DNA of 35,401 nt from the IMG/VR virus record IMGVR_UViG_3300020381_000026, positions 1-35,401 of that record; one strand, 5' to 3'. The DNA is from a virus. Lineage: Duplodnaviria > Caudoviricetes. The position numbers and the translations under genes are program-made. Positions 2,889 to 34,519 of the stretch are shown piece by piece (the stretch's first letter is position 1; each line of letters begins with the position of its first letter). The notes beneath the pieces were generated by a model that worked only from the letters and a program-made list of their open reading frames with translations, ran no database searches and was not told the origin of the DNA.

Positions 2889-3197
2889 TTAATCAAGCAG
2901 AACTGCTTTTAATTCATCTGTTTGGTGCATTTCTGTAATGATATCACACCCACCAACCAACTCTCCTTTTACGAATAGTTGTGGGAATGTGGGCCAATCA
3001 CTTACACTTGGTAATGTTGCTCTAACATCTGGATCTTCAAGTATATCCATATAACTGAATTCTACTTTATATTCCTTTAGTATGTCAACAACCTGTGCAG
3101 AAAATCCACATCTTGGTTGATGTGGGTCACCTTTCATAAACAATATAATGTTATTGTCTTTGATGATGTTTTCTAATTGTTCTTTAACTTCACTCAC
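2889..3197 (-). CDS. grxD: Monothiol (CGFS) glutaredoxin, Grx4 family
   Basis: LFMKG..PRCGFS, WPTFPQLF, GGCD; probable GTG start at 3197. Confidence 0.93.
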   Translation of the reverse strand: MSEVKEQLENIIKDNNIILFMKGDPHQPRCGFSAQVVDILKEYKVEFSYMDILEDPDVRATLPSVSDWPTFPQLFVKGELVGGCDIITEMHQTDELKAVLLD

Positions 3198-3636
3198 TTG
3201 GGAATCCTTCTTGTACAAATTTACTAATTTGTTCTATTTCTTTATCAGATAAGTTTGCGGCTTGACCCCACATCATCTGACTCATTGGACCTACCTGTCC
3301 ATTGTTTTTATATGTTGTTAGTTTTGTTAAGATATCGTTTGAACTTTGTCCTGCTAACATTGGACCTACTCCACCGCCACCTGTTGGACCATGACATGCG
3401 GCACATCCTGCCCATAAACTTCTGATATCACTAAATGGATCTCCAGCGGCTAGAGCCTGTTTTGCTTTTAATATATCCACTGTAGTTCCATGTATTCTAA
3501 CATATTCTTCGTAACATTCTCCTGTGCATGTATGTGTACTTGAATAACCTTTGTATTCTAAATCAGGATATATTACAAATGCAAAGAAGCAAAAGAATAC
3601 TACGCATCCTGATAAAACCATTCCTAATTCTTTCAT
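3190..3636 (-). CDS. Membrane-anchored class I c-type cytochrome
   Basis: CAACHG heme motif, PMLAGQ, distal Met region SQMMWGQA, N-terminal TM helix. Confidence 0.88.
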   Translation of the reverse strand: MKELGMVLSGCVVFFCFFAFVIYPDLEYKGYSSTHTCTGECYEEYVRIHGTTVDILKAKQALAAGDPFSDIRSLWAGCAACHGPTGGGGVGPMLAGQSSNDILTKLTTYKNNGQVGPMSQMMWGQAANLSDKEIEQISKFVQEGFPSE

Positions 3637-4113
3637 CTATTCAAAGAAATTGCCAATAAGGCTGTGAATATAATTATCCAACCTATCGTTATTCATAACA
3701 AATTTTTGCTGATATGTACTTGCAAACTCATGTGCCTTATCAACATGTTGACTATCAAGAGATAAACTTAATGTGTCGCCATCAGTAACTTGAATTACAC
3801 CTACCATAGCCATCATAGCATGTGGTGTACATTCATATATGTAAACACCTGGAGTATCTAATGTAATTGAAATCTCTTCATTCATCTTACCTCTCCATGG
3901 TGTTGCTCCTGGAGGAGTAAATACTGACACTGAATTGTGTGACATATCTGATGCTATAAATTTGACTGTGTCGCCTTTATTTACAGATAATACTGCAGGT
4001 TCAAATATCATCATACCGCCTGCTCCGTTGTTTAACATTTTTACTGTATGCTCTGCCGCAAAGGCTGGAACTGTTAGTAAAAATAAACTTATTGCTATTA
4101 ATATATTCTTCAT
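3637..4113 (-). CDS. Pseudoazurin (type-1 blue copper protein)
   Basis: Signal peptide ending AFA, VKMLN..MIFEP, SHN, and CTPHAMMAM copper ligands. Confidence 0.9.
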   Translation of the reverse strand: MKNILIAISLFLLTVPAFAAEHTVKMLNNGAGGMMIFEPAVLSVNKGDTVKFIASDMSHNSVSVFTPPGATPWRGKMNEEISITLDTPGVYIYECTPHAMMAMVGVIQVTDGDTLSLSLDSQHVDKAHEFASTYQQKFVMNNDRLDNYIHSLIGNFFE

Positions 4114-4343
4114 TATTTTACCTCATCAACTAGTTTTTTAAATTCTTGATATCCGCCAATCTTTGCGCCATCAACTATAATTTGTGGGAAAGTTCTTGCA
4201 CCTGGAAAAGTTTCCATTAGTGCTTCTCTATCAAAATCCTCATCTAACATTTTTACTGTTAAATCATATTCTTTTTGTTCTGCTAAGTTTTTTGCCATAT
4301 CACAGTATGGGCATTGTGGTTTACTGTATATCTCTACTTTCAT
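4113..4343 (-). CDS. Dithiol glutaredoxin
   Basis: CPYC, TFPQI, IGGY. Confidence 0.92.
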   Translation of the reverse strand: MKVEIYSKPQCPYCDMAKNLAEQKEYDLTVKMLDEDFDREALMETFPGARTFPQIIVDGAKIGGYQEFKKLVDEVK

Positions 4344-8289: not shown

Positions 8290-8436
8290 CTACTCTGCAT
8301 AGTTTATACATACTTGTATTGGATGTCCATGTGCTGTAAATTCTGTTGTGCAAGTATATTGTAAACTATAATAAATCATTATACTTCCAAACGATATAAC
8401 TAATATAAACAAAATTGCTATCCAATTATTCATCAT
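8290..8436 (-). CDS. Small membrane protein (48 aa; not in ORF track)
   Basis: ATGA overlap with the queE stop; N-terminal TM helix. Confidence 0.55.
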   Translation of the reverse strand: MMNNWIAILFILVISFGSIMIYYSLQYTCTTEFTAHGHPIQVCINYAE

Positions 8437-9359
8437 GTGCCCCATGCATTACCAAATAAATTAATATGCAATCTAGGACTAAACTTGTATCCAGTTTGCA
8501 TACATGCTTCTGCAACATCTTTTTCTGTTAGTGCTTGTTGTTCAAATGTTGCACCTTCTGGCATACAGTAAACAGCATCTACTGTTACACCTGCTTCTTT
8601 ATACGCACTCACATACTCATCTACTTCATCAAAGTCTATTATATCTCTAACAACAAACTTATTATATAAAAAACTATTCTCTACTTTATTCATACTAACT
8701 AATGCATCTGGCTTTAATGTATCTTCTCTTGTCTCAGCACTAATAGATAGTTTAGGTGATGTACTCCAAGTTATATGTACACCTTTACCCTCACCATTAA
8801 AGTATTCTGTCATATTATCTTCACAATGTTTACTGCCATTTGTTTCAAATGTAACATTTACTAAACCATATTCTTTGTTTAGTCTATCAATAAGGTCGGG
8901 CCAAACACGTTGCCACCCTAGTAGCGGTTCACCACCTGTGATAACCAGGTGTATGTCTTCGCCGTGCCGGCCCTGAAAAGTACCATTTGGTAACAATGAG
9001 ATGATGTTATCAATCACTTCACTTACACTTTCTGTTCGTTGTAAGTGTTTATACTTCATTGCCCAACTGGCACTACTGTCACACCCTATGGGTGTAACAG
9101 GCAACTCTTCGATACTTTTATAAGCATCGGGATGATTCTTATCGGCACGTTCATCAGTCATGTAAGGCATATCATCCTTCGCTATGATGTCTCCGCGTGG
9201 TTGTCCAAAACCTGCACATTCAAAATTACAGCCGAAAGTTCTAAGGAACACACTAGGCACACCTACCCATCTACCCTCACCTTGTACGGAGTAGAATACT
9301 TCAGAGTACCTTAGTTTAGGTTCCTTCTTTACTTTGTTATTAAAAGTTTCAACTTTCAT
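8433..9359 (-). CDS. queE: 7-carboxy-7-deazaguanine synthase (radical SAM)
   Basis: SEVFYSVQGEG, FLRTFGCN, ITGGEPLL, FETNG, SPKLS, PRLHINLFG. Confidence 0.92.
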   Translation of the reverse strand: MKVETFNNKVKKEPKLRYSEVFYSVQGEGRWVGVPSVFLRTFGCNFECAGFGQPRGDIIAKDDMPYMTDERADKNHPDAYKSIEELPVTPIGCDSSASWAMKYKHLQRTESVSEVIDNIISLLPNGTFQGRHGEDIHLVITGGEPLLGWQRVWPDLIDRLNKEYGLVNVTFETNGSKHCEDNMTEYFNGEGKGVHITWSTSPKLSISAETREDTLKPDALVSMNKVENSFLYNKFVVRDIIDFDEVDEYVSAYKEAGVTVDAVYCMPEGATFEQQALTEKDVAEACMQTGYKFSPRLHINLFGNAWGT

Positions 9360-9897
9360 CTTTATCTTTTATGCTGTTTTTTCTTTGAACATATTCTTCA
9401 TAATCTAAATCACTTTTAGTGCTATCCGTATTTTTCATAATGTTTGGAACAGCATTTACAAGTGCTTGATTCACTATTATATGTAAGTCTGATATTAGAT
9501 TTTTATCTGTTTCAGCAGACTCTACATTATCTAAACAACAAACTCTTAGTCCTTGGTTCATTAGTTTAGCAAAATCTTTCTCTTCAGGGTAATAATAATG
9601 TCCCTGAGCAACTAACTTAATGTAAACAATTTGATGTAAATTAATTACTTCTATAATTGTTTCATCTGTATGTTTACCTACATTAATCAATGTAAGTAAT
9701 TTTTCTATATCTGTATCTGGTATTTGTATATTGTCACTGTAGAAATGTACGGCTTCCATAATATCTTCTTCAGATAGTTTATGATAAACTCTAGTCAATG
9801 TATCAATAGTTTTACCTTTGCCAATCATACCACAAAGAGTATCAACTGGAACTAATCCATTGCCTGTCACGAAACCTGATGCTCTACGTTCTATCAT
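9349..9897 (-). CDS. Protein with N-terminal DUF433-like HTH
   Basis: VPVDTLCGMIGKGKTIDTLTRVYHKLSEEDIMEAVHFY fits the DUF433 pattern. Confidence 0.55.
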   Translation of the reverse strand: MIERRASGFVTGNGLVPVDTLCGMIGKGKTIDTLTRVYHKLSEEDIMEAVHFYSDNIQIPDTDIEKLLTLINVGKHTDETIIEVINLHQIVYIKLVAQGHYYYPEEKDFAKLMNQGLRVCCLDNVESAETDKNLISDLHIIVNQALVNAVPNIMKNTDSTKSDLDYEEYVQRKNSIKDKDES

Positions 9898-10592
9898 TAT
9901 TGACCTTTACTTCCTGCAAAACTTTGTTGAAGTTTAATATTATCCATAAACTCCTTCTGCACTTTGCCTTCGTTTTTAAATGCTCCTTTAAGAACAGTTG
10001 TTTGTGTAAGACTACTATGTGCTTTTACACCTCTATTCTCTACGCAACCATGTGTGGCTTGTATGTACACACCTAAGTTCTCTGTGCCTGTTGCACGTTG
10101 TATCTCTCTAGCAATATCATTAGCAAGTTCTTCTTGTAGTGTTCCACGTTCTGCACACCATTGTGCTATTCTAGTGTATTTAGACAAACCAATTAGTTTC
10201 TCACTAGCAATAATACCTATGTATGCTACACCTCTAACTATCTGGTGATGATGTGAACACATACTTGTTAGTTCACTTCTTACAACTAACATACCTTCAT
10301 ACCTATCAATACTATCGTTAGGGAAAGCAGTTGCAGTAGGCATAGGTTCATACCTACCTGCCATTAGTTCATTGATATACATCTTAGAAAGACGTTTTGC
10401 AGTACCATTACTGTTAGGATCATTCTCAGTATCTATAACGAGACCTTGTAATACTTCTTCAAACTTAGGAGCCAACTCATCTATCAGTTGTTGCTTCTCT
10501 CCTTCTTCAATAAAGTCTGAGATATTATCTCCTGCCCAAAAACGTTTTCCAGCATCTTTTAATCTTTGTTTAATCTTCTTGCTTGTAGACAC
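9897..10592 (-). CDS. folE: GTP cyclohydrolase I
   Basis: SMCSHH, GLSKYTR, QEEL, HGCVENRG; probable GTG start at 10592 after GGAGG. Confidence 0.95.
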   Translation of the reverse strand: MSTSKKIKQRLKDAGKRFWAGDNISDFIEEGEKQQLIDELAPKFEEVLQGLVIDTENDPNSNGTAKRLSKMYINELMAGRYEPMPTATAFPNDSIDRYEGMLVVRSELTSMCSHHHQIVRGVAYIGIIASEKLIGLSKYTRIAQWCAERGTLQEELANDIAREIQRATGTENLGVYIQATHGCVENRGVKAHSSLTQTTVLKGAFKNEGKVQKEFMDNIKLQQSFAGSKGQ

Positions 10593-10882
10593 TATCTGCC
10601 TCCTTTGTCTAAATAATGTTGTACTATTAATCCACTGACCCAATTTTCAGCAGTATCTTCTGCATAAGAAATACTCTTGCCTGGAAGTTGTCTAGTTTCT
10701 ACTAACACTTCATCTTCATAAAATTCAACTGCATAACCTTTTTCATCAATAATTTTTGCAGTTCTACTTGTTTGTCCTTTAATCTTTCTTTTCATTGTTT
10801 CAAAATCTCTGTCTGTATCTTCAAACAGTTCCATTTGTGTTGGTGCTCCTTCGCTCCAATACTGACTAACTACATTTGCCAT
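10592..10882 (-). CDS. Hypothetical protein
   Basis: GAGGAG RBS before ATG 10882. Confidence 0.7.
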   Translation of the reverse strand: MANVVSQYWSEGAPTQMELFEDTDRDFETMKRKIKGQTSRTAKIIDEKGYAVEFYEDEVLVETRQLPGKSISYAEDTAENWVSGLIVQHYLDKGGR

Positions 10883-11339
10883 TCCACCACTCCTCATAAG
10901 GAAATACTATCCAATTGTTTTCTTCTTCTTCATCTAGTTCTACAGCACATATCTGTGAAGCAAAATTACTAGACAGTTTTTCTAATAACACCGCATACTT
11001 TACATTATCAGTCATACCTTCCATAATAACTACATCATGTATGCCTTGTAATGTTGTACCTGTGTCATTAATGTCATCTATAATAACAATTCTTTTACCA
11101 TTGTATTTAGACAAAAGGTGTCTAAGTTGAGTACTATTCTGTACTTTTCCGTCTCTTGTTTGCCATTCAAATCCATGAAAAGGAATATTATAATAATGAC
11201 TCATCATAGTTCCTATTGCAAGTCCGCCTCTGCTTGGACCTAATACTACATGTGGTCTCAACATTTGTGTTGCCATTTGTTGTGTGATGTCTCCCATCAT
11301 ACCTTCAATGTCTGACCAACTGTAATATACTTTACTCAT
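10866..11339 (-). CDS. Type I phosphoribosyltransferase (Gpt/Hpt-like)
   Basis: SRGGL, PRPP loop IVIIDDINDTGTTL, WIVFPYE. Confidence 0.9.
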   Translation of the reverse strand: MSKVYYSWSDIEGMMGDITQQMATQMLRPHVVLGPSRGGLAIGTMMSHYYNIPFHGFEWQTRDGKVQNSTQLRHLLSKYNGKRIVIIDDINDTGTTLQGIHDVVIMEGMTDNVKYAVLLEKLSSNFASQICAVELDEEEENNWIVFPYEEWWNGKCS

Positions 11340-11386
11340 AGGTTTATTATACCGGTTTTTCTGGTAAATGTCAAGTAATATTTCAT
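11336..11386 (-). CDS. 16-aa mini-ORF spanning the promoter and coupled to the PRTase
   Basis: AGGAG RBS, MKYYLTFTRKTGIINL*, TGA overlaps the PRTase ATG. Confidence 0.4.
   Translation of the reverse strand: MKYYLTFTRKTGIINL
11346..11374 (-). promoter_or_regulatory. Consensus sigma70 promoter, predicted leaderless
   Basis: TTGACA-17-TATAAT, then 6 nt, then ATG. Confidence 0.85.
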
Positions 11387-11399
11387 ATTTCTCCTACTA

Positions 11400-11483
11400 T
11401 TATCCAACTGGAAAAGTTATCATTATTACAGCAAAAGCAATTAAGGTCGTCCACATAATGACCTTAGCCTTTTTCTCACTCAT
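11400..11483 (-). CDS. 27-aa single-TM peptide
   Basis: GAGG RBS; MSEKKAKVIMWTTLIAFAVIMITFPVG. Confidence 0.45.
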   Translation of the reverse strand: MSEKKAKVIMWTTLIAFAVIMITFPVG

Positions 11484-11485
11484 AA

Positions 11486-12466
11486 CTACCTCTTTTTAAT
11501 TTTAGTTTTTTGCCACTTGATTTCATCTTCAACAATTTGTTGAATAGAGTTGGTTGGCTCCCAACCTAAAATTGTTTTAGCAGAATTGATATCTGCAAAT
11601 GTCTGTGTCATGTCGCCTGGTCTAGCATCTGCATACTCTACATCTATTGTAGTATCCAATGCTACTTCAACTGCATCAACTAGTCCTTTCATACTAACTG
11701 GATTGCTGTTACCAATGTTTACAGTTATATTTTCTTTTTGGTCAAACATATAATATGCCGTACTTAGGAATGCTCTTGCAACATCATTTACGTGAGTATA
11801 ATCTCTAACGCAAGTACCATCTTCAGTATTATAATCCTCACCATTAATTGTAAACTTATTTTCCGTTAGTCCTGCCTGTGCTAAAATAGGCAACACATGA
11901 ACTAAAGGATCTTTCTGATATCCATTTTTACCTTCATTACTTCCTGCCACATTAAACAGTCTAAGGTTTGCATAATTAAATCCATATACATCTGCATAGT
12001 CTTTAATTATTTTTTCACATATTTGTTTTGTTCTACCATATGGATTAATTGGTGCAGTAGGATCGCTTTCTTTAAATGAACCATCTTCATTTATGCTTGT
12101 ACCATACACACTTGAACTACTTGCAAATATGAAGTTAGGTACTTCGGCATGTACGCAAGTATTCAACAAACTAATTGTTTGTAATACATTGTCAGTGTAA
12201 GTAGGCATTGGATCTTTTACACTTGCTGGCACACTATTGTTTGCCGCAATATGTATAACTGCATGTGGTTTGATAAGTTCTATAACACCTTTTACTTGTT
12301 TGTTATCAATCTCAAAAGGATATTGAGTAACTCCAGGTATTTCTCTTTTCTTCTTATCAATATTAATTACATTGAATCCACTATCAACAAATAGTCTAGC
12401 AACATTGGATCCTATAAATCCACTTCCGCCAGTAATTACTATTGCTTTTTCGTTATTAATTTCCAT
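11486..12466 (-). CDS. galE: UDP-glucose 4-epimerase-like NDP-sugar epimerase
   Basis: GGSGFIG, SSSSVYG, YGRTK, RDYTHVND. Confidence 0.88.
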   Translation of the reverse strand: MEINNEKAIVITGGSGFIGSNVARLFVDSGFNVINIDKKKREIPGVTQYPFEIDNKQVKGVIELIKPHAVIHIAANNSVPASVKDPMPTYTDNVLQTISLLNTCVHAEVPNFIFASSSSVYGTSINEDGSFKESDPTAPINPYGRTKQICEKIIKDYADVYGFNYANLRLFNVAGSNEGKNGYQKDPLVHVLPILAQAGLTENKFTINGEDYNTEDGTCVRDYTHVNDVARAFLSTAYYMFDQKENITVNIGNSNPVSMKGLVDAVEVALDTTIDVEYADARPGDMTQTFADINSAKTILGWEPTNSIQQIVEDEIKWQKTKIKKR

Positions 12467-13526
12467 TTGCTCTACCTCTTATAACTTCATAAAGTGCCTT
12501 ACCACTAAAGAAGTTTTCTGTTAGGCTATGTGCTTGTAAATCAATTAAACTCTTATCGTTTTCACCTAACACCTTTTTAATATGTGCCATAATTAAATCT
12601 TTGTTTAGAATGTAACTATCAAAGTCTTCTGTCCAATCACTTGGATATAAAAACTCTGATTGATACATCTCTGAATAAGATAATCTATCTGGTACCATTG
12701 GGTTGGCTCCTACCAATGCACCTTCATAACAACTAATGCCTAGTGTTTCTTGTGTGTTTGCACTAAAGACAATCTTTGCTCTACCTAACAATTCGTGATA
12801 TTCTTCTTTTGTTAGTGTTTGTTCCTGACATACAATCCAATCATATTCTGGCATACTTTCTGCCAAGTCTTTAAATATGTCTACTTGTTTTTCAGGAGCA
12901 AGTCTGTGCGGAAATAATATAATGTTTTCTTTAAATGCATTATCATGTTCCGCTAATTCATGTTGTAGATACTCCATGGGCCACCCAACTATGTGAGCCT
13001 TACCAGTATTCATTAGTTCAAACTTCTCATATCCAAACTCTCTACAGAACATGTCTAAATGAAAGTCTGTTGCAAAGAAGTTATCATCGAATACTTCAAA
13101 CATACTGCGTTCAGCATGTCTAACCCACGGTGCATCTCCAATTAATCTACCAAGGAAATCTGCTGGATCATAACTGCCGGCATGCCACATGCCACCAATC
13201 TTTATATCTATATCCAACAGTTCAGCCATGTATTTAAGTTGTATTACAGTAGGATTCCATGCGTCTGTGTAAAGAAAGTAATCGCCATCACTAACTTTCC
13301 CATCTGCAATCAACTTACTGATAGTTTTTAGTTGTTCACTCTTCCAATAGTTTGTACCACTGAAGTTTAAAAATGCTCCTGGAGTTGTATCCGTTGGGGC
13401 ATCACTAGGACCTTCAATAACATGAACTTCTAAGTCAGCGAATTGCATTTGCTCTGGCAAATACTTCTTCCACTGAGCAGTATATCTTGTTTCAACTGGT
13501 TCTAATTCAACTAAAAATACTTTCAT
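12456..13526 (-). CDS. GT-B (GT4-like) glycosyltransferase
   Basis: HRLAPEKQ and Ex7E motif ETLGISCYE. Confidence 0.82.
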   Translation of the reverse strand: MKVFLVELEPVETRYTAQWKKYLPEQMQFADLEVHVIEGPSDAPTDTTPGAFLNFSGTNYWKSEQLKTISKLIADGKVSDGDYFLYTDAWNPTVIQLKYMAELLDIDIKIGGMWHAGSYDPADFLGRLIGDAPWVRHAERSMFEVFDDNFFATDFHLDMFCREFGYEKFELMNTGKAHIVGWPMEYLQHELAEHDNAFKENIILFPHRLAPEKQVDIFKDLAESMPEYDWIVCQEQTLTKEEYHELLGRAKIVFSANTQETLGISCYEGALVGANPMVPDRLSYSEMYQSEFLYPSDWTEDFDSYILNKDLIMAHIKKVLGENDKSLIDLQAHSLTENFFSGKALYEVIRGRANGN

Positions 13527-13528
13527 AA

Positions 13529-13711
13529 TTACATACTGTTTTTCTTTTCTTGGATTTCAGCACGTCTACTCTTAGTAAGTTTACCAAGATTGCCAAGTGC
13601 TTTTCTGGCTCTAGTAGCAGATGCTTTAATACCTTTCTCTTCGAACTTTGCACTTTCTTCAAGATAGGCTTCCATCTCTGCTTTTATTTGTAAATGAATT
13701 TCACTACTCAT
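13529..13711 (-). CDS. Small basic histone H1/Hc1-like protein
   Basis: GIKASATRARKALGNLGKLTKSRR. Confidence 0.65.
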   Translation of the reverse strand: MSSEIHLQIKAEMEAYLEESAKFEEKGIKASATRARKALGNLGKLTKSRRAEIQEKKNSM

Positions 13712-13735
13712 TTTCTTCTCCTTTATATATAAAGT

Positions 13736-14155
13736 TTAACATCCTGTATCTTCTGCAATAAACTCTTCTCTCAAAGGTCTGCTATGTACAGGATATTCCA
13801 TTTCGCAACCGTTTTCATTATCTTCGGCTACTGATATTCTAACAAATCTGCTAGGATATTTGTCGTTGATTGCATTGTATAATTCATCTGCAATCATCTC
13901 ACAACTTTTGTTGTTCAGTTCAAGTACACTATCTTGATTGTATAATCTTTGTAGCCATCTTTTGAACTGAATAAATTCTATGTCTCTGTCATCGTGGAAT
14001 ACTTCTATCCACACTTTAAAATGAAATATATGTCTGTGCTTGTATCCTAAGAAACTTACATCATCCCAATCGCCTGTAGCAGTTGCAGGATTTGTATCTG
14101 CACCAGGATAATAATGCACACCTTCTTGACTAAATGTTACCCATATATTTCTCAT
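13736..14155 (-). CDS. dpdL: QueD/PTPS-like T-fold protein with LxxxHRHxF motif (DpdL-like CDG decarboxylase)
   Basis: LGYKHRHIF, RDIEF, SCEMIA, V.ED.ENG; lacks the CxxxHGH of canonical QueD. Confidence 0.72.
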   Translation of the reverse strand: MRNIWVTFSQEGVHYYPGADTNPATATGDWDDVSFLGYKHRHIFHFKVWIEVFHDDRDIEFIQFKRWLQRLYNQDSVLELNNKSCEMIADELYNAINDKYPSRFVRISVAEDNENGCEMEYPVHSRPLREEFIAEDTGC

Positions 14156-14388
14156 GTTTTTCCTTTAATAGTTTTATAAATTCTATGTAATGTGTAAAAC
14201 CATACACCATTTATTGCAGGTTCTACAAGTGCCACTATACCTGACTCCCAAAAACTTGCACCAGTTACTACACTAACAACAATCATTGCAATACAAATGT
14301 GTCCTAGTGTATATATAATAGCAAGACCCAAGGATGTTTCCATAAAGCCTTTAAAAACATTACCGATTCCTTGTGTAAACTCTGTCAT
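14152..14388 (-). CDS. DUF2061-like membrane protein
   Basis: IYTLGH..IA..V....TG....G..ALVEP.IN.VWFY..H. Confidence 0.7.
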   Translation of the reverse strand: MTEFTQGIGNVFKGFMETSLGLAIIYTLGHICIAMIVVSVVTGASFWESGIVALVEPAINGVWFYTLHRIYKTIKGKT

Positions 14389-14795
14389 TATGCCTCTTTA
14401 TTTGGATTCCAAAGTGTTAAGTTTTTAGTTTTAAGTCTGTTAGCAACAATAGTATATCTATTTTGTTCTTCTTTCCATTCCTTTAACCATTTGTGTCCAT
14501 CTCTTTCTGCATCAACAAAGATTGCATTAGTAAATGCTAACGGAAGTAATATAGCAACATGTATAAAAATACTTGCTACTGTATTATATCCAAACCAACC
14601 CAAATAGTTTGATGCTAAAAATCCAAAGTACACACTCCATATAATAAAGAGAACTAACATAAAGTATGTCTGTAAACTAGGATCTGGTATATACTTCAAC
14701 GGATTATATCTAACATCCATCACTCTTCTCCAGCCACTTACAAGACTCATTACAGTCCTTCTAAATAAACTTGGTTTTTTCATTGCAGGTTCCAT
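14388..14795 (-). CDS. Membrane protein, paralogue of 6532-6882
   Basis: RYNPLKYIPDPSLQTYF..WSVYFG; GAGGAG RBS. Confidence 0.78.
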   Translation of the reverse strand: MEPAMKKPSLFRRTVMSLVSGWRRVMDVRYNPLKYIPDPSLQTYFMLVLFIIWSVYFGFLASNYLGWFGYNTVASIFIHVAILLPLAFTNAIFVDAERDGHKWLKEWKEEQNRYTIVANRLKTKNLTLWNPNKEA

Positions 14796-14805
14796 TACTT
14801 TCTCC

Positions 14806-14913
14806 TCATTTTAAACGTTCTACTATATATTCTTTTAACACATGCATTCCATATGATGCCCACGTTATAAAGACTAAACTCCAAAACAGTATAACCAGTG
14901 AATCCCATAACAT
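14806..14913 (-). CDS. 35-aa membrane peptide (not in ORF track)
   Basis: TAATG coupling; MLWDSLVILFWSLVFITWASYG... Confidence 0.5.
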   Translation of the reverse strand: MLWDSLVILFWSLVFITWASYGMHVLKEYIVERLK

Positions 14914-15131
14914 TAAGTATTATCCTCTGGTCTATATGACACTCTTTGTTTGTCAAACTTGCCTTTTCCTAAGTCTGGATTATGTTTTGGATCTGGTGTA
15001 ATCTTTTCCTTCTTTTCCCAAAACAATCTAACAGATTTACCTGTCTTTTGTTCATGTACTATAACTGAACTTACATAGGCAAATAAACCAGCGGCTATAA
15101 CAATAAAGATACTTAATATTGTATTAATCAT
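14913..15131 (-). CDS. Small membrane protein
   Basis: N-terminal TM; probable start MINTILS after GGAG. Confidence 0.65.
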   Translation of the reverse strand: MINTILSIFIVIAAGLFAYVSSVIVHEQKTGKSVRLFWEKKEKITPDPKHNPDLGKGKFDKQRVSYRPEDNT

Positions 15132-15258
15132 CTCCATCATAATCCTCTTCATGCAAGGCAATTAGTTTATCTCTGAACTCAGAAACAACTGCAATAAGTT
15201 GTTCTATTTCATCCATATCTTGCTTTGTATCAATTTCAACTTCTAGTTTAATCTTCAT
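15124..15258 (-). CDS. 44-aa acidic protein (not in ORF track)
   Basis: MKIKLEVEIDTKQD...DGDD*, below a candidate promoter. Confidence 0.6.
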   Translation of the reverse strand: MKIKLEVEIDTKQDMDEIEQLIAVVSEFRDKLIALHEEDYDGDD

Positions 15259-15266
15259 GTTATAAT

Positions 15267-15295
15267 ATATTATACTCTTTTGCTATTAATGTCAA
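15267..15295 (-). promoter_or_regulatory. Candidate sigma70 promoter
   Basis: TTGACA(15295-15290) with TAATAT at 17-nt spacing (TATAAT at 15). Confidence 0.55.
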
Positions 15296-15885
15296 CCATT
15301 TTTTCTGGTATAAGATGTATTTCCATCAGCATATCTATGATTAACTTCACTATGATGTTGTTCATCTGCTCTTACTTTTTTAATTAAATCACTTAACTTT
15401 GCAGACTTTTTCATCTTGTAATATTTGATTGCTAGTTCTGGTGCTGGTACGTTTTCCACTTCACCATTCTCAACCATTGCTAGATAATCTGTATAACTTC
15501 TAACTGCTTCTTCTTCAAAGTAACCTATCATTCTATGTGCTGTCTTATAACTAATAGCATATAATATAGCATAGAATAACATAAACAACAGTTGGGCAAT
15601 TAGAACCAAATATCTTTCAAACCAATTAGGCTTTGCTATTTCAATAAAGAACATCAAATGCATTCTTTCGTTTTCTGCTTCTGCTAATAGTTCTCTGATA
15701 TCAGGTCCATAACCTGTTTTCATCTTACGCAGACTTTTCATGTGTAACCACATACCTGCAACCATACCAGGCACACCAGCAACTGTTTCTAGCACTACTG
15801 CCCTGTGTCCATATCTTTTAGCAAAGAATGTGTCCGCTATAAAACGGAAAAACTTTGTCATAGACATGGCTATCCAATCTCTCAT
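15292..15885 (-). CDS. aox: Alternative oxidase (diiron ubiquinol oxidase)
   Basis: LETVAGVPGM, EAENERMHL, FEEEAVRSY, RADEQHH. Confidence 0.95.
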   Translation of the reverse strand: MRDWIAMSMTKFFRFIADTFFAKRYGHRAVVLETVAGVPGMVAGMWLHMKSLRKMKTGYGPDIRELLAEAENERMHLMFFIEIAKPNWFERYLVLIAQLLFMLFYAILYAISYKTAHRMIGYFEEEAVRSYTDYLAMVENGEVENVPAPELAIKYYKMKKSAKLSDLIKKVRADEQHHSEVNHRYADGNTSYTRKNG

Positions 15886-16403
15886 TCTATAACCTTATCT
15901 CCTACATACGCCGACCAATCAGTGTATGCACTTCTGTTTCTTAAATTATGTACTTGATGACACCATACTCCGCCGTTAGGACCTTTGAATGCCTTGTCAT
16001 CAATTTTAAGTGTAGCATTGTAATTAAACTGATTAACGTATGGCATAGGCACACTAATCATTGCTACAAATTTGTTATATTCATCCCAACCTTGTTCTAA
16101 AACTTCCTCACAGTATTTGGCATTGAAGTCTACAGTTACCCAAATATCTGCTTTAATTAATTCTTTTACAATGTAGTCCCACTCTTCCCAATCCTCATCT
16201 GTTTCAGGAGCAAATGTATATCCACATCCTAAGTAAGCATGGTCAATTTTATTAGCCAAACATCTTTGCAATATCTCTTTTGGATTTTGTTTGCCTATAA
16301 CAAACAATGTAGTAACTCCAAACAAAGGAGTTCGTTCTACTTCTACACCAATAAAGAACTTTGGATCTTCTCCAAAATTATCTCTTCCTTCTACACTAGA
16401 CAA
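15882..16403 (-). CDS. Hypothetical protein inside the deazaguanine locus
   Basis: 173-aa ORF; FFIGVEVERTP..TLFV, GGVW..WSAY..D. Confidence 0.75.
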   Translation of the reverse strand: MSSVEGRDNFGEDPKFFIGVEVERTPLFGVTTLFVIGKQNPKEILQRCLANKIDHAYLGCGYTFAPETDEDWEEWDYIVKELIKADIWVTVDFNAKYCEEVLEQGWDEYNKFVAMISVPMPYVNQFNYNATLKIDDKAFKGPNGGVWCHQVHNLRNRSAYTDWSAYVGDKVIE

Positions 16404-16587
16404 TGTAATCCTCCCTCGATTTTTTTGCTGTTCTTTTTACACCTGATGGACTTGTATATTCATCTTTGGATATACCTTTAGTTCCACCATCTCTGTTTAC
16501 AATATTAAATACTATTGCCATAATTATCATAATAGATACTATACAAATAATTAAAGCGGTTATTGGTATAATTAATACATCACTCAT
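16396..16587 (-). CDS. Small membrane protein
   Basis: N-terminal TM helix, basic tail. Confidence 0.65.
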   Translation of the reverse strand: MSDVLIIPITALIICIVSIMIIMAIVFNIVNRDGGTKGISKDEYTSPSGVKRTAKKSREDYIV

Positions 16588-16591
16588 TCTA

Positions 16592-17494
16592 CTAATCCCA
16601 TGTTAAATATACTCTACCTTTATGGTATCCATTTACTTTATATTCAAATGCTTGTTTGGCATCCATTCTATTATATCCCATTTCCCACATATCGGAAACT
16701 TTTAAACTATTGCTTTTTATACATTCTCTAGCATATCTCATAGATTGTATAAACGTTTTGTCTCTTGGACTAGGACATTTAATTGTAATGTTCCTCCAAA
16801 GATATTTGCTAAAGTCCATGTTCTCTACAGTCTTCTCTGCCGCTAATACATATAAACCATTGTCATTAACAAAATCGCCTGTCATATATTCTTGTTTACT
16901 GCTGAAGTCTATAAAAGCATCAAAGCCACCTCCATTGTGAAGTGTTGTTTTAATAACTCCTTGTCTATCCCAATACTCAGGATATGCATTGCCACATACA
17001 GTAAAGTTTTTGTACCCTTTACGTTTTAGTGTATAGTGTGTTACCCTTGCTAGGAATCCTGTGCCTATAATTGCTATGCTTTGTTCATAATCTTCGTTGT
17101 GAGTATAAACTGCATTAGCAACATTAATGCCACATGCTACAGGCTCTAATATATATTTTTTATCTACTTTAGGAACTTTAACAAACGTTCCCATTTTAGC
17201 ATTGTAATAATCTGCAAAGCCAGGTTCACCTCTTGTAGCAACAATATCGCCTTCTTGTAAACCCATGTTTGCATTTACTAAACTACCGACCTTAGTAACA
17301 ATACCAATAGACTCATGACCTTGTATTGTTTTTGGAAGTGTAGTAAACTCGCCTTTATACATAGCAACATCACTACTACAAATACCTGTCATTGATGTTT
17401 TAACTTCTATTTCATCCTTGGCAGGTTCTGGCTTATCCCAAATCTCTTCTAGTAAGTCATTGTTTCCTGTAGTATATAATAACTTAACCTTCAT
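16592..17494 (-). CDS. MDR-family (Zn alcohol/sugar) dehydrogenase
   Basis: GICSSD, GHE, LEP.AC, IIGTGFL; no 4-Cys structural zinc loop. Confidence 0.85.
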   Translation of the reverse strand: MKVKLLYTTGNNDLLEEIWDKPEPAKDEIEVKTSMTGICSSDVAMYKGEFTTLPKTIQGHESIGIVTKVGSLVNANMGLQEGDIVATRGEPGFADYYNAKMGTFVKVPKVDKKYILEPVACGINVANAVYTHNEDYEQSIAIIGTGFLARVTHYTLKRKGYKNFTVCGNAYPEYWDRQGVIKTTLHNGGGFDAFIDFSSKQEYMTGDFVNDNGLYVLAAEKTVENMDFSKYLWRNITIKCPSPRDKTFIQSMRYARECIKSNSLKVSDMWEMGYNRMDAKQAFEYKVNGYHKGRVYLTWD

Positions 17495-18365
17495 GATATA
17501 CCTCTAAGTGTTTGTGTATCCATGTATCAAAATATCTATGCATATCATAATCTTCTGATAATGCTTTCATAATCATTTCACCATACGCATAGTCTGGACA
17601 TAATCCAAAGTGCCAAATGTATTCGCTGTCTGCTGTAATTACTTTAATACTTTGGTCATCATATCCTGCTTTCCAACTTGCTCTAACTGTAACAGGAGTA
17701 ATACCATTCATTATCCATGTCTCTTCTGCATAGTCGCATACATTATATACGCCATCTAATTTAATATCACCATAGTCACTACCATCTATTAAGTCTGATA
17801 ATTGCCATTGTTGTGCCATACTATATCCACCCCTATCCAAACTATCTAAAGGAGTAATGTTTATAAGTTGTGTATATAAATGTGGGAATAAATCTAATGC
17901 AACTCCACCCCATGCCAACTTTTTATTTGTACTCCAGCCACCTGGATTAGGAACTCTATTTTTGTTTAACCAATTTATTTCTATACGCAAAGGTTTCTCA
18001 TTTGAGTCTCTCCATTTTTGTATAGCACCTAAGTTTGTTCTGTACATATTATTTTTGCACATTATAAATTTTGTTTTAGGATTCTCATCACACAATGCAT
18101 TCCACATGTCAGCACTAGGAAGTCCTGGTTTTTCTACTAACACAACTTTACATTTTTTTGCTAATACATTTGCAACTTGTTCATGAGAATAGTTAGGTGT
18201 ACAAATTATACCAATATCAAAGTTACCTTTTGCATCATTAGGATTTTGAAAGTCTGCTGAAGTATCATATAAGTCGGCAGTAGTCACAGAAAATCCTTGA
18301 TTCTGTAACTGAGGTAGATAAACATTTCTACCTATACCACCTGTGCCAACTAATAATGCTTTCAT
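17484..18365 (-). CDS. Gfo/Idh/MocA NAD-dependent oxidoreductase
   Basis: VGTGGIG, ICTPN..H, VLVEKP, GGVALDLFPH. Confidence 0.88.
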   Translation of the reverse strand: MKALLVGTGGIGRNVYLPQLQNQGFSVTTADLYDTSADFQNPNDAKGNFDIGIICTPNYSHEQVANVLAKKCKVVLVEKPGLPSADMWNALCDENPKTKFIMCKNNMYRTNLGAIQKWRDSNEKPLRIEINWLNKNRVPNPGGWSTNKKLAWGGVALDLFPHLYTQLINITPLDSLDRGGYSMAQQWQLSDLIDGSDYGDIKLDGVYNVCDYAEETWIMNGITPVTVRASWKAGYDDQSIKVITADSEYIWHFGLCPDYAYGEMIMKALSEDYDMHRYFDTWIHKHLEVYHEG

Positions 18366-18554
18366 TTAATCCGTCAATCTATCTAGTTCTTCGAAGTCAT
18401 GCTCACCATATAAAGTAACTCTATAAGTATCATCTTCACTTATCCTTTCTACTTCATATGCTAATTCATATCCTTGTTCTGTTAATTTTGCTACTCTAAA
18501 AGTAAACTCTCTATAGTCGTCCTTCTCAAGTATTACTCTTTGATGGTCTGCCAT
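18366..18554 (-). CDS. Hypothetical protein
   Basis: 62-aa ORF, TAATG coupled to dpdA. Confidence 0.65.
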   Translation of the reverse strand: MADHQRVILEKDDYREFTFRVAKLTEQGYELAYEVERISEDDTYRVTLYGEHDFEELDRLTD

Positions 18555-20122
18555 TATAACTCCTCCACTAGGTCATCTAGTGCTTGTTCCATTACTTCAT
18601 CAAACTCGCCTTCAACTTGTTGTTCTACTTCCTCATCAAAGAACATACTAGCCGCACTATTTTTAAATGCACTATCATGATCCTTATGTTTGTTATTACT
18701 AACATCATCTAAGAAAGGTTTAGCATCGTCGATTAGTTTAAATGGATTTGGACAGTTAGGATCAAATACTTCTTCAACCAATGTATTAAACATCAACATA
18801 TTTCTTGGTGTCCATAAACTTTCTTGATTAAGTTTCTTTCCTTTCTTCTGCCAGTTTCTCCAGTCTAACTTGTAGTTCTCAAACTCCATTGTTGCTAGAC
18901 TGTTTGCTTCTTGTACTGCTCTAATATGCATATAAACATTGTGTGCCATTAGTATTCCATAAGTAAAACTATCCCAAGATGTTTTGCCTTCTTTACCAAT
19001 TTTGTTTAGCATACCTGGAGCATACCAATTTACATCTCCTGACGTAACTCTTCTGCCAATCTCACTCTCCCAAGGGAAAGGATTTGCTGATACGTTACCA
19101 GGACTAAAGTGGCTAAATGCTTTGTTATCAAAACACTTCTCCATAATGTAACTCATTTGTTCTGCTGTAATTTTGTTTCTAGTATAAACTAATCCATTTG
19201 CACTACTAATGTAAGGACTAGCACAATCAAAACTTACAGTAATATTAGGATTGACATGTTCTCTTAACTGTCTTTGAATGCTTGTAAGCATTACACCCCA
19301 ATCCAATTTGCTTGTACCCAAAAAGTGTATCCAATCTTTATCTTGTAATAGTTCATCATTACGCATTGTTACAAGTCTTTTAAGTACCATATGCATGTCA
19401 CGAATGTTGTTACCACCCATGCCCCAACCTTCTAGTCCATCTGGACCTTCTGAATAAGGCTTAACTGTTTGATACCATTGTTCTGCATCATCCCAATATG
19501 TTCCTTGTAATACATTTAAGAACTTTGTTTTGCCTAAACGATTATCTTTAAACCAATCTAAATTAAATGTAGTACACTTCAAACATTCATCAAAGTTCTG
19601 TAGTCCTGTTTTTTCTCTAAAGCCTGGCTTACATGCCCAACTAGGAACATCAAATGTCATACTCCAGTCTGCTGTATTTTCTAACCAAGCCAGGATTTTT
19701 GCACGGACTCTATCGGCATCGCCCTTGTATCCTGAATCGCCTGGTCTTTCAAAGAAGTTCTCCCAGTCAAACTTAATAACACCCTTACCAATTTGGAAAC
19801 CACCTGAGTCTCCAACAATAGTTGTTTCGTTCTTGTCCCTAGTATGTATAATGTATTCCATTACCTCACTTTTCTCTAAGTCTAAGTAGGCATGACCGGC
19901 ACTATACAATGCTTTATTATAGTAGTAATATCCTTTCTCCTTATCAAGAAAGTTCATACCTTCAAAGCCATGTTCAAAGCCTTGAGGCACTCTATCTCTA
20001 CCATCTACGTTTGGAATGTATCCTTCAACACTATTACATCTGCCCAACAATTCAGTAAAGAATCCACTGATTGCTGGCAAGAACGTTGCGTAATCGCTAT
20101 GTCTTTTGGATAAATCTCTCAT
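18554..20122 (-). CDS. dpdA: TGT-fold 7-deazaguanine DNA transglycosylase (DpdA family)
   Basis: GDSGGFQ, MTFDVP, LNVLQG, GWGMGG, IHFLG, SFDCASP, AHN; folE/queE nearby. Confidence 0.82.
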   Translation of the reverse strand: MRDLSKRHSDYATFLPAISGFFTELLGRCNSVEGYIPNVDGRDRVPQGFEHGFEGMNFLDKEKGYYYYNKALYSAGHAYLDLEKSEVMEYIIHTRDKNETTIVGDSGGFQIGKGVIKFDWENFFERPGDSGYKGDADRVRAKILAWLENTADWSMTFDVPSWACKPGFREKTGLQNFDECLKCTTFNLDWFKDNRLGKTKFLNVLQGTYWDDAEQWYQTVKPYSEGPDGLEGWGMGGNNIRDMHMVLKRLVTMRNDELLQDKDWIHFLGTSKLDWGVMLTSIQRQLREHVNPNITVSFDCASPYISSANGLVYTRNKITAEQMSYIMEKCFDNKAFSHFSPGNVSANPFPWESEIGRRVTSGDVNWYAPGMLNKIGKEGKTSWDSFTYGILMAHNVYMHIRAVQEANSLATMEFENYKLDWRNWQKKGKKLNQESLWTPRNMLMFNTLVEEVFDPNCPNPFKLIDDAKPFLDDVSNNKHKDHDSAFKNSAASMFFDEEVEQQVEGEFDEVMEQALDDLVEEL

Positions 20123-20906: not shown

Positions 20907-20934
20907 ATTATACATTACTATTTAGAAAAGTCAA
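20907..20934 (-). promoter_or_regulatory. Sigma70 promoter with embedded late-like TAAATA
   Basis: TTGACT-16-TATAAT; CTAAATA at 20925-20919. Confidence 0.65.
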
Positions 20935-29126: not shown

Positions 29127-29155
29127 ATTATACCGGATTTTGTGGTAAATGTCAA
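29127..29155 (-). promoter_or_regulatory. Consensus sigma70 promoter, predicted leaderless
   Basis: TTGACA-17-TATAAT, 6 nt, ATG. Confidence 0.85.
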
Positions 29156-29814
29156 TCTTTTAAATTACGATTACTTTTGGCTATGTGTCTCAAAATGTTT
29201 CTTGATGCTATGCCAAATGTTTCTTGCTGGTCTTTTTCTTCTATGAAGTTGCAGTTTACTACTTGTTCTACAACATGGCTAGGTTTTTCGTCTATCAAAT
29301 CTATAAGCATCCATGCCGCCTTTTCTTCATCAATCATCATATCATACTTCAAGTCTTTATTTGATCCTCTAACTAGATTTGTATTCACAAAACCAAAAGA
29401 AATATTATGTATTCTAGTTTTGTTTTTATAAGGATAATTAAAACTACTGTTAATTGCGTGTTCTTGTAATGCTTTTTTATCAACTACATATTCAGGTGTA
29501 CCTAGTATATGTCCTAAGTGACCTGATATAGATCCTGTGTTTATGATTACTTTGGACTGGTCGGCCCATTTGGTATATAGATGTTTGACTATCTTAGTTT
29601 GGATTTTTGGATAATATGCATTATTAAATACAACATCTGGATCAAAGTCTATAAGAGTCTGGATTATTTTATCGCCATCATCTTCTGCAATGTTATGTCC
29701 ATTGCTTTTAGAATATCCTCTTATTTCCCAACTAGATTCTGTTAGACTTAATATTGTATCTATTTGTTTACCAATGCCACTTGAGTGTCCAGTGATTGCT
29801 ATCTTTTTAGTCAA
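29152..29814 (-). CDS. Short-chain dehydrogenase/reductase
   Basis: ITGHSSGIG, NNA, YVVDK, GFVNT; probable TTG start. Confidence 0.85.
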   Translation of the reverse strand: MTKKIAITGHSSGIGKQIDTILSLTESSWEIRGYSKSNGHNIAEDDGDKIIQTLIDFDPDVVFNNAYYPKIQTKIVKHLYTKWADQSKVIINTGSISGHLGHILGTPEYVVDKKALQEHAINSSFNYPYKNKTRIHNISFGFVNTNLVRGSNKDLKYDMMIDEEKAAWMLIDLIDEKPSHVVEQVVNCNFIEEKDQQETFGIASRNILRHIAKSNRNLKD

Positions 29815-30133
29815 AGTGTTTCCCCAGCATCTCGTTGACATTCTTGCCAACATCCTTTTCTACTTTCCTTACATCAACAATTATGTTTATTTGTGATACA
29901 TTTGAGAAAGCAGAAATCATCTTCTGCCAGGTTGCGTTTGGAGAGGTTGGTAAAGGGTCTGATAATTCAGCATGGTCTAATTTTGCATTTGTTCCGTCCC
30001 TAAACTCTATGATGATAGAATCAATCATAGTTACAGGTATCTCCGTTGGGAAAACTTGCTTCAATAAATTTTCAAACTTTTCATTTTTTGAATGCTTTGC
30101 AACCAATACAATCTTTATGTCATTCGCAGACAC
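29807..30133 (-). CDS. Hypothetical protein
   Basis: AGGAG RBS, GTG start; ATAAATA at 30186-30180. Confidence 0.72.
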   Translation of the reverse strand: MSANDIKIVLVAKHSKNEKFENLLKQVFPTEIPVTMIDSIIIEFRDGTNAKLDHAELSDPLPTSPNATWQKMISAFSNVSQINIIVDVRKVEKDVGKNVNEMLGKHFD

Positions 30134-30198
30134 TACTCTTCTCCTACATTGTAAGTTAAAAATATAACGTTACTTGTTATATTTATCTAGTTCTAATC

Positions 30199-30819
30199 TT
30201 AACTAGATTTTGGCGGTCTTCCAGGTCCTCTTTTGGGACTTAGTTCAGGTGCAATTCTATATGCCTCTGATTTTTTGGCTTCCGCGTCACTTACTAATGC
30301 CTTGGCATCCTGCTCTAACAGTTCTGCCTGTGCTAGAAGATTGTTTGCAATATCAACTGGCTCACCTGCTGAGTCTTCAACTACTTCAACAGTTGCTGAA
30401 GTGTCAACTGAAACTCCATCACCTTCTATGATTGCTTCTTCAGTTTTTAGTGGTGGGTTACTGCCTGTTTCTATTTTTCCTAACTCTGCATTTACTTCTG
30501 AAAGTTCAATCTCTTGATTAGGTACTGGTGTCAGTTTAACCATATCAACTGGAACCTTTTGAAGTTTTTGGTTTGCATGTAAAGTTTCTAGTAGGTTACT
30601 TCCATCAGTTGCTCTTCTTCTAAAGAATACTTCTGAAATGTTGTTTGACTCTTGACCTTCAGGACTATCAACGACACTCATTATGTCATCGTGTAATTGA
30701 CCTTCAAGTGAATCACTTACTACTATAAGTGCCTGGTCTGCCTCTTCTGGTAACTCTCTGAAAACAACCACACAAGGTTTGTCTCCATATTTACCAACGT
30801 GCTTCATTAAATCTGCCAT
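30199..30819 (-). CDS. Hypothetical phage protein with C-terminal AT-hook
   Basis: KHVG..VVVFRELP; ends KRGPGRPPK; AGGAG RBS. Confidence 0.75.
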   Translation of the reverse strand: MADLMKHVGKYGDKPCVVVFRELPEEADQALIVVSDSLEGQLHDDIMSVVDSPEGQESNNISEVFFRRRATDGSNLLETLHANQKLQKVPVDMVKLTPVPNQEIELSEVNAELGKIETGSNPPLKTEEAIIEGDGVSVDTSATVEVVEDSAGEPVDIANNLLAQAELLEQDAKALVSDAEAKKSEAYRIAPELSPKRGPGRPPKSS

Positions 30820-30820
30820 G

Positions 30821-31129
30821 TTATTTCTCCTCTGGAGCCTCTTCGACGCCATCATTTTCTACTGGTGCCTCTTCGGCTTCCGCGGCGGCTTTTGCCGCAT
30901 CTTGTTGTTCTTTCACACTTCCTAAGAATTGTGCAAGTTTGTCGTATAAAGAACCTACTACAGATAGTTCACCACCTTTAAATGCACCTCTTTGTGATGC
31001 CAGGTCAATTATCTGTGCAATTTGATCCAAGTCACGTAATGTGATTGACTCAACTGGACGTCCTTCATCTACTGCAGGAGCATCCTGTTGGATCTCTTCT
31101 GCATTTGAAACTGTTTCTTCATTAGCCAT
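30821..31129 (-). CDS. Acidic hypothetical protein
   Basis: IIDLASQRGAFKG.EL..VG.LY core; TATAAATA at 31176-31169. Confidence 0.75.
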   Translation of the reverse strand: MANEETVSNAEEIQQDAPAVDEGRPVESITLRDLDQIAQIIDLASQRGAFKGGELSVVGSLYDKLAQFLGSVKEQQDAAKAAAEAEEAPVENDGVEEAPEEK

Positions 31130-31215
31130 TATATAATTTCTCCGGTTTAATGTTTTGTTATATGCAATTATTTATAACATACTTTAATTAGAAAGGAAAT
31201 AAAATGGTGTGTTTT

Positions 31216-31950: not shown

Positions 31951-31976
31951 TTCAAATACTCCTACAGTATCTATAT

Positions 31977-32004
31977 ATTATACAGGTTTTAGGGCAAATG
32001 TCAA
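31977..32004 (-). promoter_or_regulatory. Sigma70 promoter
   Basis: TTGACA-16-TATAAT. Confidence 0.75.
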
Positions 32005-32005
32005 C

Positions 32006-34239: not shown

Positions 34240-34519
34240 CAGCAATATTTATCGTATGTATTGCTGGAGCATCTTCTATATGTGGTGAATCAAACTCTTG
34301 TAAAACTCTTGCTACGTCATCATTAGATTCAAAATACATGATCCATTGGTTACCCATATCTTTGACTACACAATATTGTCCTATGGCATTGTCATATAAC
34401 CAATCGCATACTGCAAAATCATTTGTAACAAACTTGTTACTCAACATAGTAGCAAATTTTTCTGTTCCTGCTAACGAACTAAATTCTGATTCAGTTAGTT
34501 TATTAAATCTTCTAATCAT
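34220..34519 (-). CDS. Hypothetical protein
   Basis: 99-aa coupled ORF. Confidence 0.7.
   Translation of the reverse strand: MIRRFNKLTESEFSSLAGTEKFATMLSNKFVTNDFAVCDWLYDNAIGQYCVVKDMGNQWIMYFESNDDVARVLQEFDSPHIEDAPAIHTINIADEFKNT

Follow-up and report, generated by a model that had tools for sequence, protein, structure and literature searches.

A predicted 7-deazaguanine DNA modification locus of a marine jumbo phage with a glycosyltransferase and a candidate sugar-altering enzyme pair

Deazaguanine genes and glycosyltransferase of the locus

The viral record IMGVR_UViG_3300020381_000026 is a fragment of 35,401 nt, which was analysed in full (hereafter the window); it is the whole record and the gene content reported for it covers nothing beyond it. 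The window carries genes predicted to make 7-deazaguanine and insert it into DNA (dpdA, dpdL, folE and queE), accompanied by genes for a glycosyltransferase (GT), a Gfo/Idh/MocA oxidoreductase (Gfo), an MDR-family dehydrogenase, a GalE-like epimerase, a type I phosphoribosyltransferase (PRTase) and a conserved protein of 173 amino acids (aa). An earlier note on this DNA had listed these ten genes as one co-directional run, and their presence, positions and location on the minus strand have all been confirmed (Table 1). The genes do share one direction; they do not form a clean operon, since 9 of the 19 open reading frames (ORFs) are extras that the note had left unnamed, among them an alternative oxidase (AOX) and an Hc1-like peptide. 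Just upstream of the locus are genes for a polymerase of family B and for a putative sliding clamp, the latter labelled after the annotation of the Phosso gene at the corresponding position. The source of the window is a marine jumbo phage, which its DpdA places closest, among cultured phages, to the PA5oct/Paride group (37% to PA5oct gp168).

Table 1. Predicted genes and promoter matches of the locus, with coordinates in the window
Feature	Coordinates	Strand	Basis
QueE, CDG (7-carboxy-7-deazaguanine) synthase	8433..9359	-	family searches; C44, C48, C93 widely spaced
FolE, GTP cyclohydrolase I	9897..10643	-	family searches
Type I PRTase, likely purine salvage	10866..11339	-	PF00156
Sigma-70-type promoter match, 12/12, just upstream of PRTase-folE-queE	11346..11374	-	consensus match only
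GalE, UDP-glucose 4-epimerase-like, accessory	11486..12466	-	TIGR01179
GT4-like glycosyltransferase, subtype A	12456..13526	-	AlphaFold2 (AF2) fold, invariant residues
DpdL, QueD paralogue, proposed CDG decarboxylase	13736..14155	-	motif, phiST CGPG_00067 match
AOX, inside the locus	15292-15885	-	PF01786, E 7e-70
173-aa conserved protein, travels with the module and Gfo-MDR	15882..16403	-	co-occurrence
MDR-family zinc dehydrogenase/reductase, coupled to Gfo	16592..17494	-	Pfam ADH_N, motifs
Gfo/Idh/MocA NAD-dependent oxidoreductase, predicted glycoside 3-dehydrogenase	17484..18365	-	PF01408, PDB profile match 7xr9
DpdA, DNA-guanine transglycosylase, 522 aa	18554..20122	-	Atlas cluster, hhalign, invariant Asp
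Sigma-70-type promoter match, 11/12, upstream of the putative sliding clamp gene preceding dpdA	20907..20934	-	consensus match only

In Atlas comparisons DpdA falls with a cluster resembling tRNA-guanine transglycosylase (TGT; score 0.94), 17% of whose members carry PF01702, and it aligns with the ACP17 gene adjoining the ACP17 GT (hhalign 92%). Residues D105, D158 and D299 are invariant in 30 sequences and lie in TGT-type aspartate motifs (DSGG, MxxD and xFD), which we take to be the catalytic ones. None of the 30 family members matched the Pfam TGT family, and the DpdA profile found no match in the PDB. In DpdL the segment LGYKHRHIF fits the pattern LxxxHRHxF, residues H14, H40, H42, C85 and E86 are invariant, and the protein matches phiST CGPG_00067 at 32.5%; its profile found nothing in the PDB. 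Of the enzymes that would act earlier, FolE and QueE are encoded inside the window and match their families; in QueE C44, C48 and C93 are invariant and the usual cluster-binding motif is interrupted by a long insertion. As the earlier note had said, none of the 56 window proteins matched QueC, QueF or ArcS, to which must be added, as a correction, that canonical QueD is missing from the window too. QueD is present elsewhere in the genome in four of five large relatives, and QueC exceeded the cut-off in none of the five. A QueC-like match in one genome (G001) lay under the cut-off and was rejected; its motifs presumably mark an NAD synthetase. Two QueD-family genes per genome, besides DpdL, were seen in L219, L220 (PA5oct) and G003. 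In Vibrio phage Bakedbeans, which has no GT, DpdL is fused to the C-terminus of a 383-aa protein, gp176 (L139:6215-7366).

This set of genes resembles that of Cellulophaga phage phiST, whose DNA contains 2'-deoxy-7-deazaguanosine (dDG) and whose DpdL has been proposed to be a decarboxylase, according to the available parts of the report (Cui et al. 2023, bioRxiv 10.1101/2023.04.13.536721 = PMC10516641). The same parts record that dpdL and dpdA of phiST or of ACP17, expressed in E. coli, gave no dDG. With the phiST dDG system (FolE, QueD, QueE, DpdL and DpdA3) the window shares FolE, QueE, a DpdL with the LxxxHRHxF motif, a DpdA-family protein and the lack of QueC. It differs in the GT, Gfo, MDR, GalE, PRTase and 173-aa genes added to this core and in its DpdA, which at 522 aa is distant from phiST DpdA3 (hhalign 49%); phiST has a DpdA3 of 259 aa, full replacement of deoxyguanosine and no GT of the family found here.

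An AF2 model of the GT, built from 48 sequences, reached a predicted local distance difference test score (pLDDT) of 89.5. Its top structural match was sucrose-phosphate synthase (6kih; Z 25.1, root-mean-square deviation 3.4 over 320 aligned residues), and the matches included BshA (Z 23.9), a tetrahydrobiopterin glucosyltransferase (Z 21.2) and, at rank 33, the GT of phage HY126 (Z 19.0). Residues H115, R208, K213, E260 and E268 are invariant in the 48 sequences; the conserved His, the Arg/Lys pair and the EX7E arrangement presumably constitute the active-site motifs of retaining GT-B enzymes. The match to Pfam PF00534 is weak (E 0.0023). By this model and these residues the protein is an intact GT4-like enzyme with a GT-B fold. 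Its family is very large, with no fewer than 8000 clusters when grouped at 90% identity, and this GT is also encoded on a 329-kb contig. Prediction of a DpdA-GT complex scored 0.00 in both runs, which speaks neither for nor against binding.

Distribution of the glycosyltransferase, its subtypes and the sugar genes

The association of the GT with the deazaguanine genes was examined in 47 viral loci anchored on the GT, where misses include contig ends, and in the best 80 of 204 loci anchored on DpdL. The GT-anchored loci contained FolE in 45, DpdL in 44, PRTase in 41 and DpdA in 40 cases, and the DpdL-anchored ones contained the GT and DpdA in 75 of 80 each; the association goes far beyond chance. 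In cultured phages a DpdL match was present in 18 of 23 records with the GT, and a GT match in 18 of 29 records with DpdL. The GT adjoins DpdA and/or DpdL, in varied orders, in PA5oct, ACP17, Phosso (DpdL only), BUDD, BCSR5 and BUCT-ZZ01. The linkage of GT to dpdA and dpdL on which the earlier note built thus extends over marine and unrelated cultured phages, with the reservation that the GT is dispensable: it is an optional addition to the pathway of DpdL and is seldom seen apart from it. The locus as a whole is real and widely distributed, and it extends the 7-deazaguanine system of the DpdL type.

The same core is present in a cultured group, Wroclawvirus PA5oct/Paride, with DpdA (gp168), GT (gp167), DpdL (gp166) and QueE (gp162), and with Gfo, MDR and the 173-aa protein as gp123-121. 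Orthologues of the window's DpdA, GT (subtype A, see below), DpdL, PRTase, QueE, Gfo, MDR and 173-aa protein occur in these phages; unlike in the window, the last three lie apart from the core and GalE is represented only by a short GalE-like ORF. The DNA of PA5oct resists five restriction enzymes, which has been read as modification of G (PMC12191111); the available passages of that paper name only QueE and QueD in PA5oct, leave the base unnamed and give liquid chromatography-mass spectrometry for other phages.

Several loci carry further sugar genes near the GT: a PIG-L deacetylase in BCSR5 (L225:5815-6522), a cytidylyltransferase-cupin fusion (L089:10604-11416), and a UDP-sugar dehydrogenase with a DegT-type aminotransferase (L028:4169-5878). 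In Synechococcus phage BUCT-ZZ01 (L226:4004-8161) two glycosyltransferases flank dpdA-like and dpdL genes, and this pair suggests a disaccharide.

For finer comparison 150 loci showing the whole module were reduced to 80 non-redundant ones by dropping GTs more than 92% identical. The HRH motif of DpdL is kept in 78 of these 80. The GT slot is occupied by one of three exchangeable subtypes: A, to which the window belongs (62 loci), B (7) and C (11). GTs of subtypes B and C are about 20-32% identical to that of the window; all three share R14, D88, D123 and E139 of the N-terminal domain and differ in the donor-side motifs. The GT of BUCT-ZZ01 resembles subtype C. Subtype changes were counted on gene trees of the near clade of the window (29 of 33 loci having all genes, plus the window). 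The DpdA tree required 3 changes, compared with a mean of about 13 for shuffled labels, and the other trees required more: 173-aa protein 7, GalE 8, clamp 9, FolE 10, DpdL 11, QueE 12 and PRTase 13. With 31 loci and the window, PolB gave 8 changes and the two halves of DpdA 3 and 4. Simple linkage does not explain this tracking, because neither dpdL, which separates dpdA from the GT gene, nor galE, which abuts the GT gene, follows the GT; it should be added that the tree of DpdL, a short protein, is weak, and that loci of one clade are kin sharing their labels.

In the window dpdA is immediately followed by the Gfo-MDR pair, and in most gene orders the pair stands beside dpdA and not beside the GT. 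Gfo directly precedes MDR in 7 of 7 gene orders, the two are within 30 nt of each other in 45 of 47 cases, and their trees agree (0.84). Their motifs are kept as well: EKP and DLxPH of Gfo, which has a Rossmann fold, in 45 of 47, and GxCxSD, GHE and EPxAC of MDR in 44 of 47. The best PDB profile match of Gfo was DgpA (7xr9, E 6e-10), with glucuronide-3-dehydrogenase among the further matches; these relatives oxidise C3 of glycosides. Such an oxidase-reductase pair suggests epimerisation. In the best 80 of 227 loci anchored on Gfo, DpdA was found in 79, MDR in 77, DpdL in 73, the GT and the 173-aa gene in 69 each and GalE in 21; all 68 typed GTs were of subtype A, the other 12 being absent or cut. 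Among the best 80 DpdL-anchored loci, 46 of 71 typed GTs were B or C, and none of these came with Gfo. A Fisher test of Gfo against GT subtype (p 0.001) was set aside, as its rows are kin. No Gfo was found in Phosso or ACP17, both of which have a subtype-A GT, and the search of prokaryote genomes returned one 6-kb contig of a metagenome-assembled genome with Gfo, MDR and the 173-aa gene, probably phage DNA. Gfo and MDR, counted by the earlier note as parts of the module, go with dpdA and with a single GT subtype, as optional members.

GalE fares less well as a part of the sugar module. Its score against TIGR01179 is 261.8 bits (cut-off 262.3), and it is present in 36 of the 80 non-redundant loci, abutting the GT in 31; its presence is independent of GT subtype, and it stays in place when the GT is found elsewhere. 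GalE is accessory. The 173-aa gene is more constant, occurring in 35 of 47 GT-anchored, 59 of the best 80 DpdL-anchored and 70 of 80 non-redundant loci; it directly follows Gfo-MDR in PA5oct and lies between folE and dpdA in ACP17. The protein, of a family with 787 representatives, bears no mark of a sugar enzyme: neither 38 members of the family nor 30 longer forms matched a Pfam family, apart from one incidental portal match, and there was no match in the PDB. Its single-sequence AF2 model is poor (pLDDT 43.6), and the fold search with it, best Z 6.8, was uninformative. Homology to QueE, as a candidate scaffold, found no support (hhalign probability below 1% with shallow and deep alignments, the model being too poor for a fold comparison).

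New here are the division of the GTs into three subtypes that track DpdA, the finding of Gfo-MDR with subtype A only, the reduction of GalE to an accessory, and the recognition that PA5oct carries both the core and the Gfo-MDR-173aa trio.

Proposed modification and its alternatives

We lean, by a modest degree, towards the interpretation that the QueC-less DpdA/DpdL set works together with the intact GT, that 7-deazaguanine is likely to stand in for some of the guanines of the phage DNA and likely to bear a sugar, and that Gfo-MDR would alter this sugar. Action of the GT on the deazaguanine is in our view probable; granted that, tailoring of the sugar by Gfo and MDR is an evenly balanced matter. 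CDG would be made by the established pathway from FolE, QueD (encoded elsewhere in the genome, judging from the relatives, or supplied by the host) and QueE, and would be decarboxylated by DpdL to 7-deazaguanine, as proposed by Cui et al. DpdA, if it has the function of its family, would exchange guanine in DNA for this base. The GT would then act as a retaining enzyme and take a hexose from a nucleotide sugar, most likely to a base already inserted, since the DpdA pocket motifs do not change with the GT subtype. Gfo could oxidise and MDR re-reduce one hydroxyl of the sugar, whether this is still on the donor or already attached to the base, most likely at C3 in view of the nearest solved relatives of Gfo, which would give an epimer; GalE would merely widen the supply of donors. 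The likely purpose of such a modification would be escape from nucleases active on DNA that is plain or carries simple modifications; the earlier note had suggested armour against restriction or CRISPR.

The favoured acceptor would be the exocyclic 2-amine, since there are natural products in which a deazapurine is N-glycosylated; the nitrogen used by the huimycin enzyme HuiG is reportedly a 2-amine. HuiG adds N-acetylglucosamine to a nitrogen of a 7-deazapurine according to the parts of the source available (bioRxiv 10.64898/2026.04.15.718813), which present huimycin as a secreted metabolite made from preQ0, not as a component of DNA; the likeness to the window GT considered here is one of reaction. 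Alternatively, the sugar might be C-linked to the pyrrole ring or joined as an ester to CDG that has not been decarboxylated. The α- and β-glucosyltransferases of T4 and like phage enzymes are also GT-B proteins that place sugars on phage DNA bases after replication, as is proposed for the window GT; they use hydroxyls of 5-hydroxymethyl- or 5-hydroxy-pyrimidines, whereas the acceptor predicted here is an analogue of a purine and has no hydroxyl.

Several observations weigh against the glycosylated base or against the part assigned to Gfo-MDR. 7-Deazaguanine offers no hydroxyl as acceptor, and no conserved hydroxylase was found among the accessory genes. The fold of the GT is nearer to small-molecule GT4 enzymes than to T4 DNA α-glucosyltransferase (Z 18.3, rank 36). 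The GT was found in none of five DpdL phage genomes tested, phiST included (positive control 5/5). Despite the tracking of the DpdA tree by subtype, the DpdA pocket motifs are near-identical across subtypes, with or without Gfo, and within subtype A the distances of the GT correlate with those of DpdA (rho 0.20) less than with those of the clamp (0.35) and DpdL (0.47). For Gfo and MDR, absence from 15 of 62 subtype-A loci means that the pair is not needed for the GT to work. The Gfo loci all come from a single phage clade with the clamp-dpdA arrangement (the clamp is present in 78 of the best 80 of 227), so the position of the pair alone proves little; by distance correlation Gfo follows the clamp (0.62) better than the GT (0.40), and PA5oct has 26 kb between the trio and dpdA. 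On six independent pairs the link between Gfo and subtype pointed the same way in 3.6 and the opposite way in 0 (median p 0.125, not significant).

Much of this would also suit a phage that makes plain dDG or its CDG counterpart, with GT, GalE, Gfo and MDR glycosylating some other target, such as a protein of the virion or host, a surface glycan or a small molecule, and merely co-located in a replication-linked block, an explanation we regard as unlikely. Phage phiST makes just such plain dDG with a DpdL system and no GT, the block does pick up unrelated passenger genes (AOX, Bax1-I, IMPDH-like), and sugar clusters of jumbo phages are read as surface-polysaccharide systems in the passages available of PMC7824862. 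A distant relative of the GT stands outside any Dpd locus in Xanthomonas phage PhiXhv-15 (L224:277-8704), in a cluster with GlmS, a PIG-L deacetylase, Gfo and GNAT; the genome has no DpdL, its FolE and QueE are encoded some 115 kb from the cluster, and the cluster is possibly another base-glycosylation system. Set against a bystander role, the GT keeps its place next to DpdA and/or DpdL across several unrelated lineages and in differing gene orders, and its subtype follows DpdA and not its physical neighbours.

The sugar could instead be placed on a soluble intermediate, either the free deazaguanine base or nucleotide before insertion or a pterin of the FolE branch, with Gfo and MDR acting not on the sugar but on a side chain of the base or pterin, for instance to make a hydroxymethyl handle. 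The kinship of the GT fold with small-molecule enzymes, that for tetrahydrobiopterin included, would fit, as would a PRTase conserved as well as the core and the place of Gfo-MDR beside dpdA in most orders. What makes this improbable to us is that the pocket motifs of DpdA are near-identical across the GT subtypes, whether Gfo is present or not, and that the many subtype-A loci lacking Gfo and MDR show that the pair cannot supply a required handle. The acidity of the GT (isoelectric point, pI, 4.66) might also be cited for a soluble substrate; as an argument against DNA binding it was dropped, because DpdA (pI 5.06) and the clamp (4.73) are likewise acidic. We hold very improbable a further scheme, which gives Gfo, MDR and the 173-aa protein a joint role in removal or salvage: they would split the glycoside through an oxidation followed by an elimination, and so recycle glycosylated bases or nucleotides. 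It draws on the best match of Gfo, DgpA, which catalyses the first step of C-glycoside cleavage, on weak glycosyl-hydrolase-like Atlas neighbours of the 173-aa protein (0.86-0.90) and on the movement of the trio as a unit in PA5oct; Atlas scores below 0.9 are leads only, and the 173-aa gene occurs without Gfo/MDR in 26 of 80 non-redundant loci, the reverse in 3.

A sugar-bearing 7-deazaguanine, which we continue to favour, may be one of several. It is possible, if doubtful, that the jumbo-phage clade writes a family of such bases, N- or C-linked, diversified by exchange of GT subtypes with DpdA and by the epimerising Gfo-MDR pair, the window making a rare-sugar epimer on a purine. In the literature searched, where subscription journals are thinly covered, glycosylated DNA bases are pyrimidines and no glycosylated deazaguanine in DNA was found; the passages available of PMC7824862, PMC12783734, PMC13326640 and PMC9025141 describe none either. 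If the proposal is true, a glycosylated purine would be a new chemical class and its GT a new kind of DNA glycosyltransferase. It would put a name to the modified G in phages like PA5oct, which are candidates for therapy, and might account for the absence of dDG from E. coli expressing DpdA and DpdL of ACP17. The predicted base could be sought in a phage that is already in culture.

Other features of the window

Family assignments of Gfo, MDR, GalE, PRTase, FolE and QueE have support from Pfam, PHROG and NCBIfam. Each of 14 DNA runs of marine origin contains at least 0.95 of the window's words, and 7 of these runs are possible sources. Contigs from three seawater RNA libraries lie over 20-26 of 30 window bins; carry-over of DNA is possible and expression is not claimed. 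No tRNA genes were found in the window. The two promoter matches of Table 1 belong to 50 sigma-70-type sites in the window, which is no excess over shuffled sequences (59.9).

The AOX gene is rare among relatives (1 of 47 GT-anchored loci). Between dpdL and the GT, a 60-aa histone H1-like Hc1 peptide (PF07432) is encoded at 13529-13711 (-) and is kept in many relatives. Farther away, two glutaredoxins, a cytochrome c and a plastocyanin/azurin-like gene follow one another at 2889-4343 (-) as a phage electron-transfer cluster. At 29152-34245 (-) an SDR, a metallophosphoesterase, an amidinotransferase-like protein and a twitch-domain radical SAM protein (NF033640, above cut-off) make up a second modification-type cluster.

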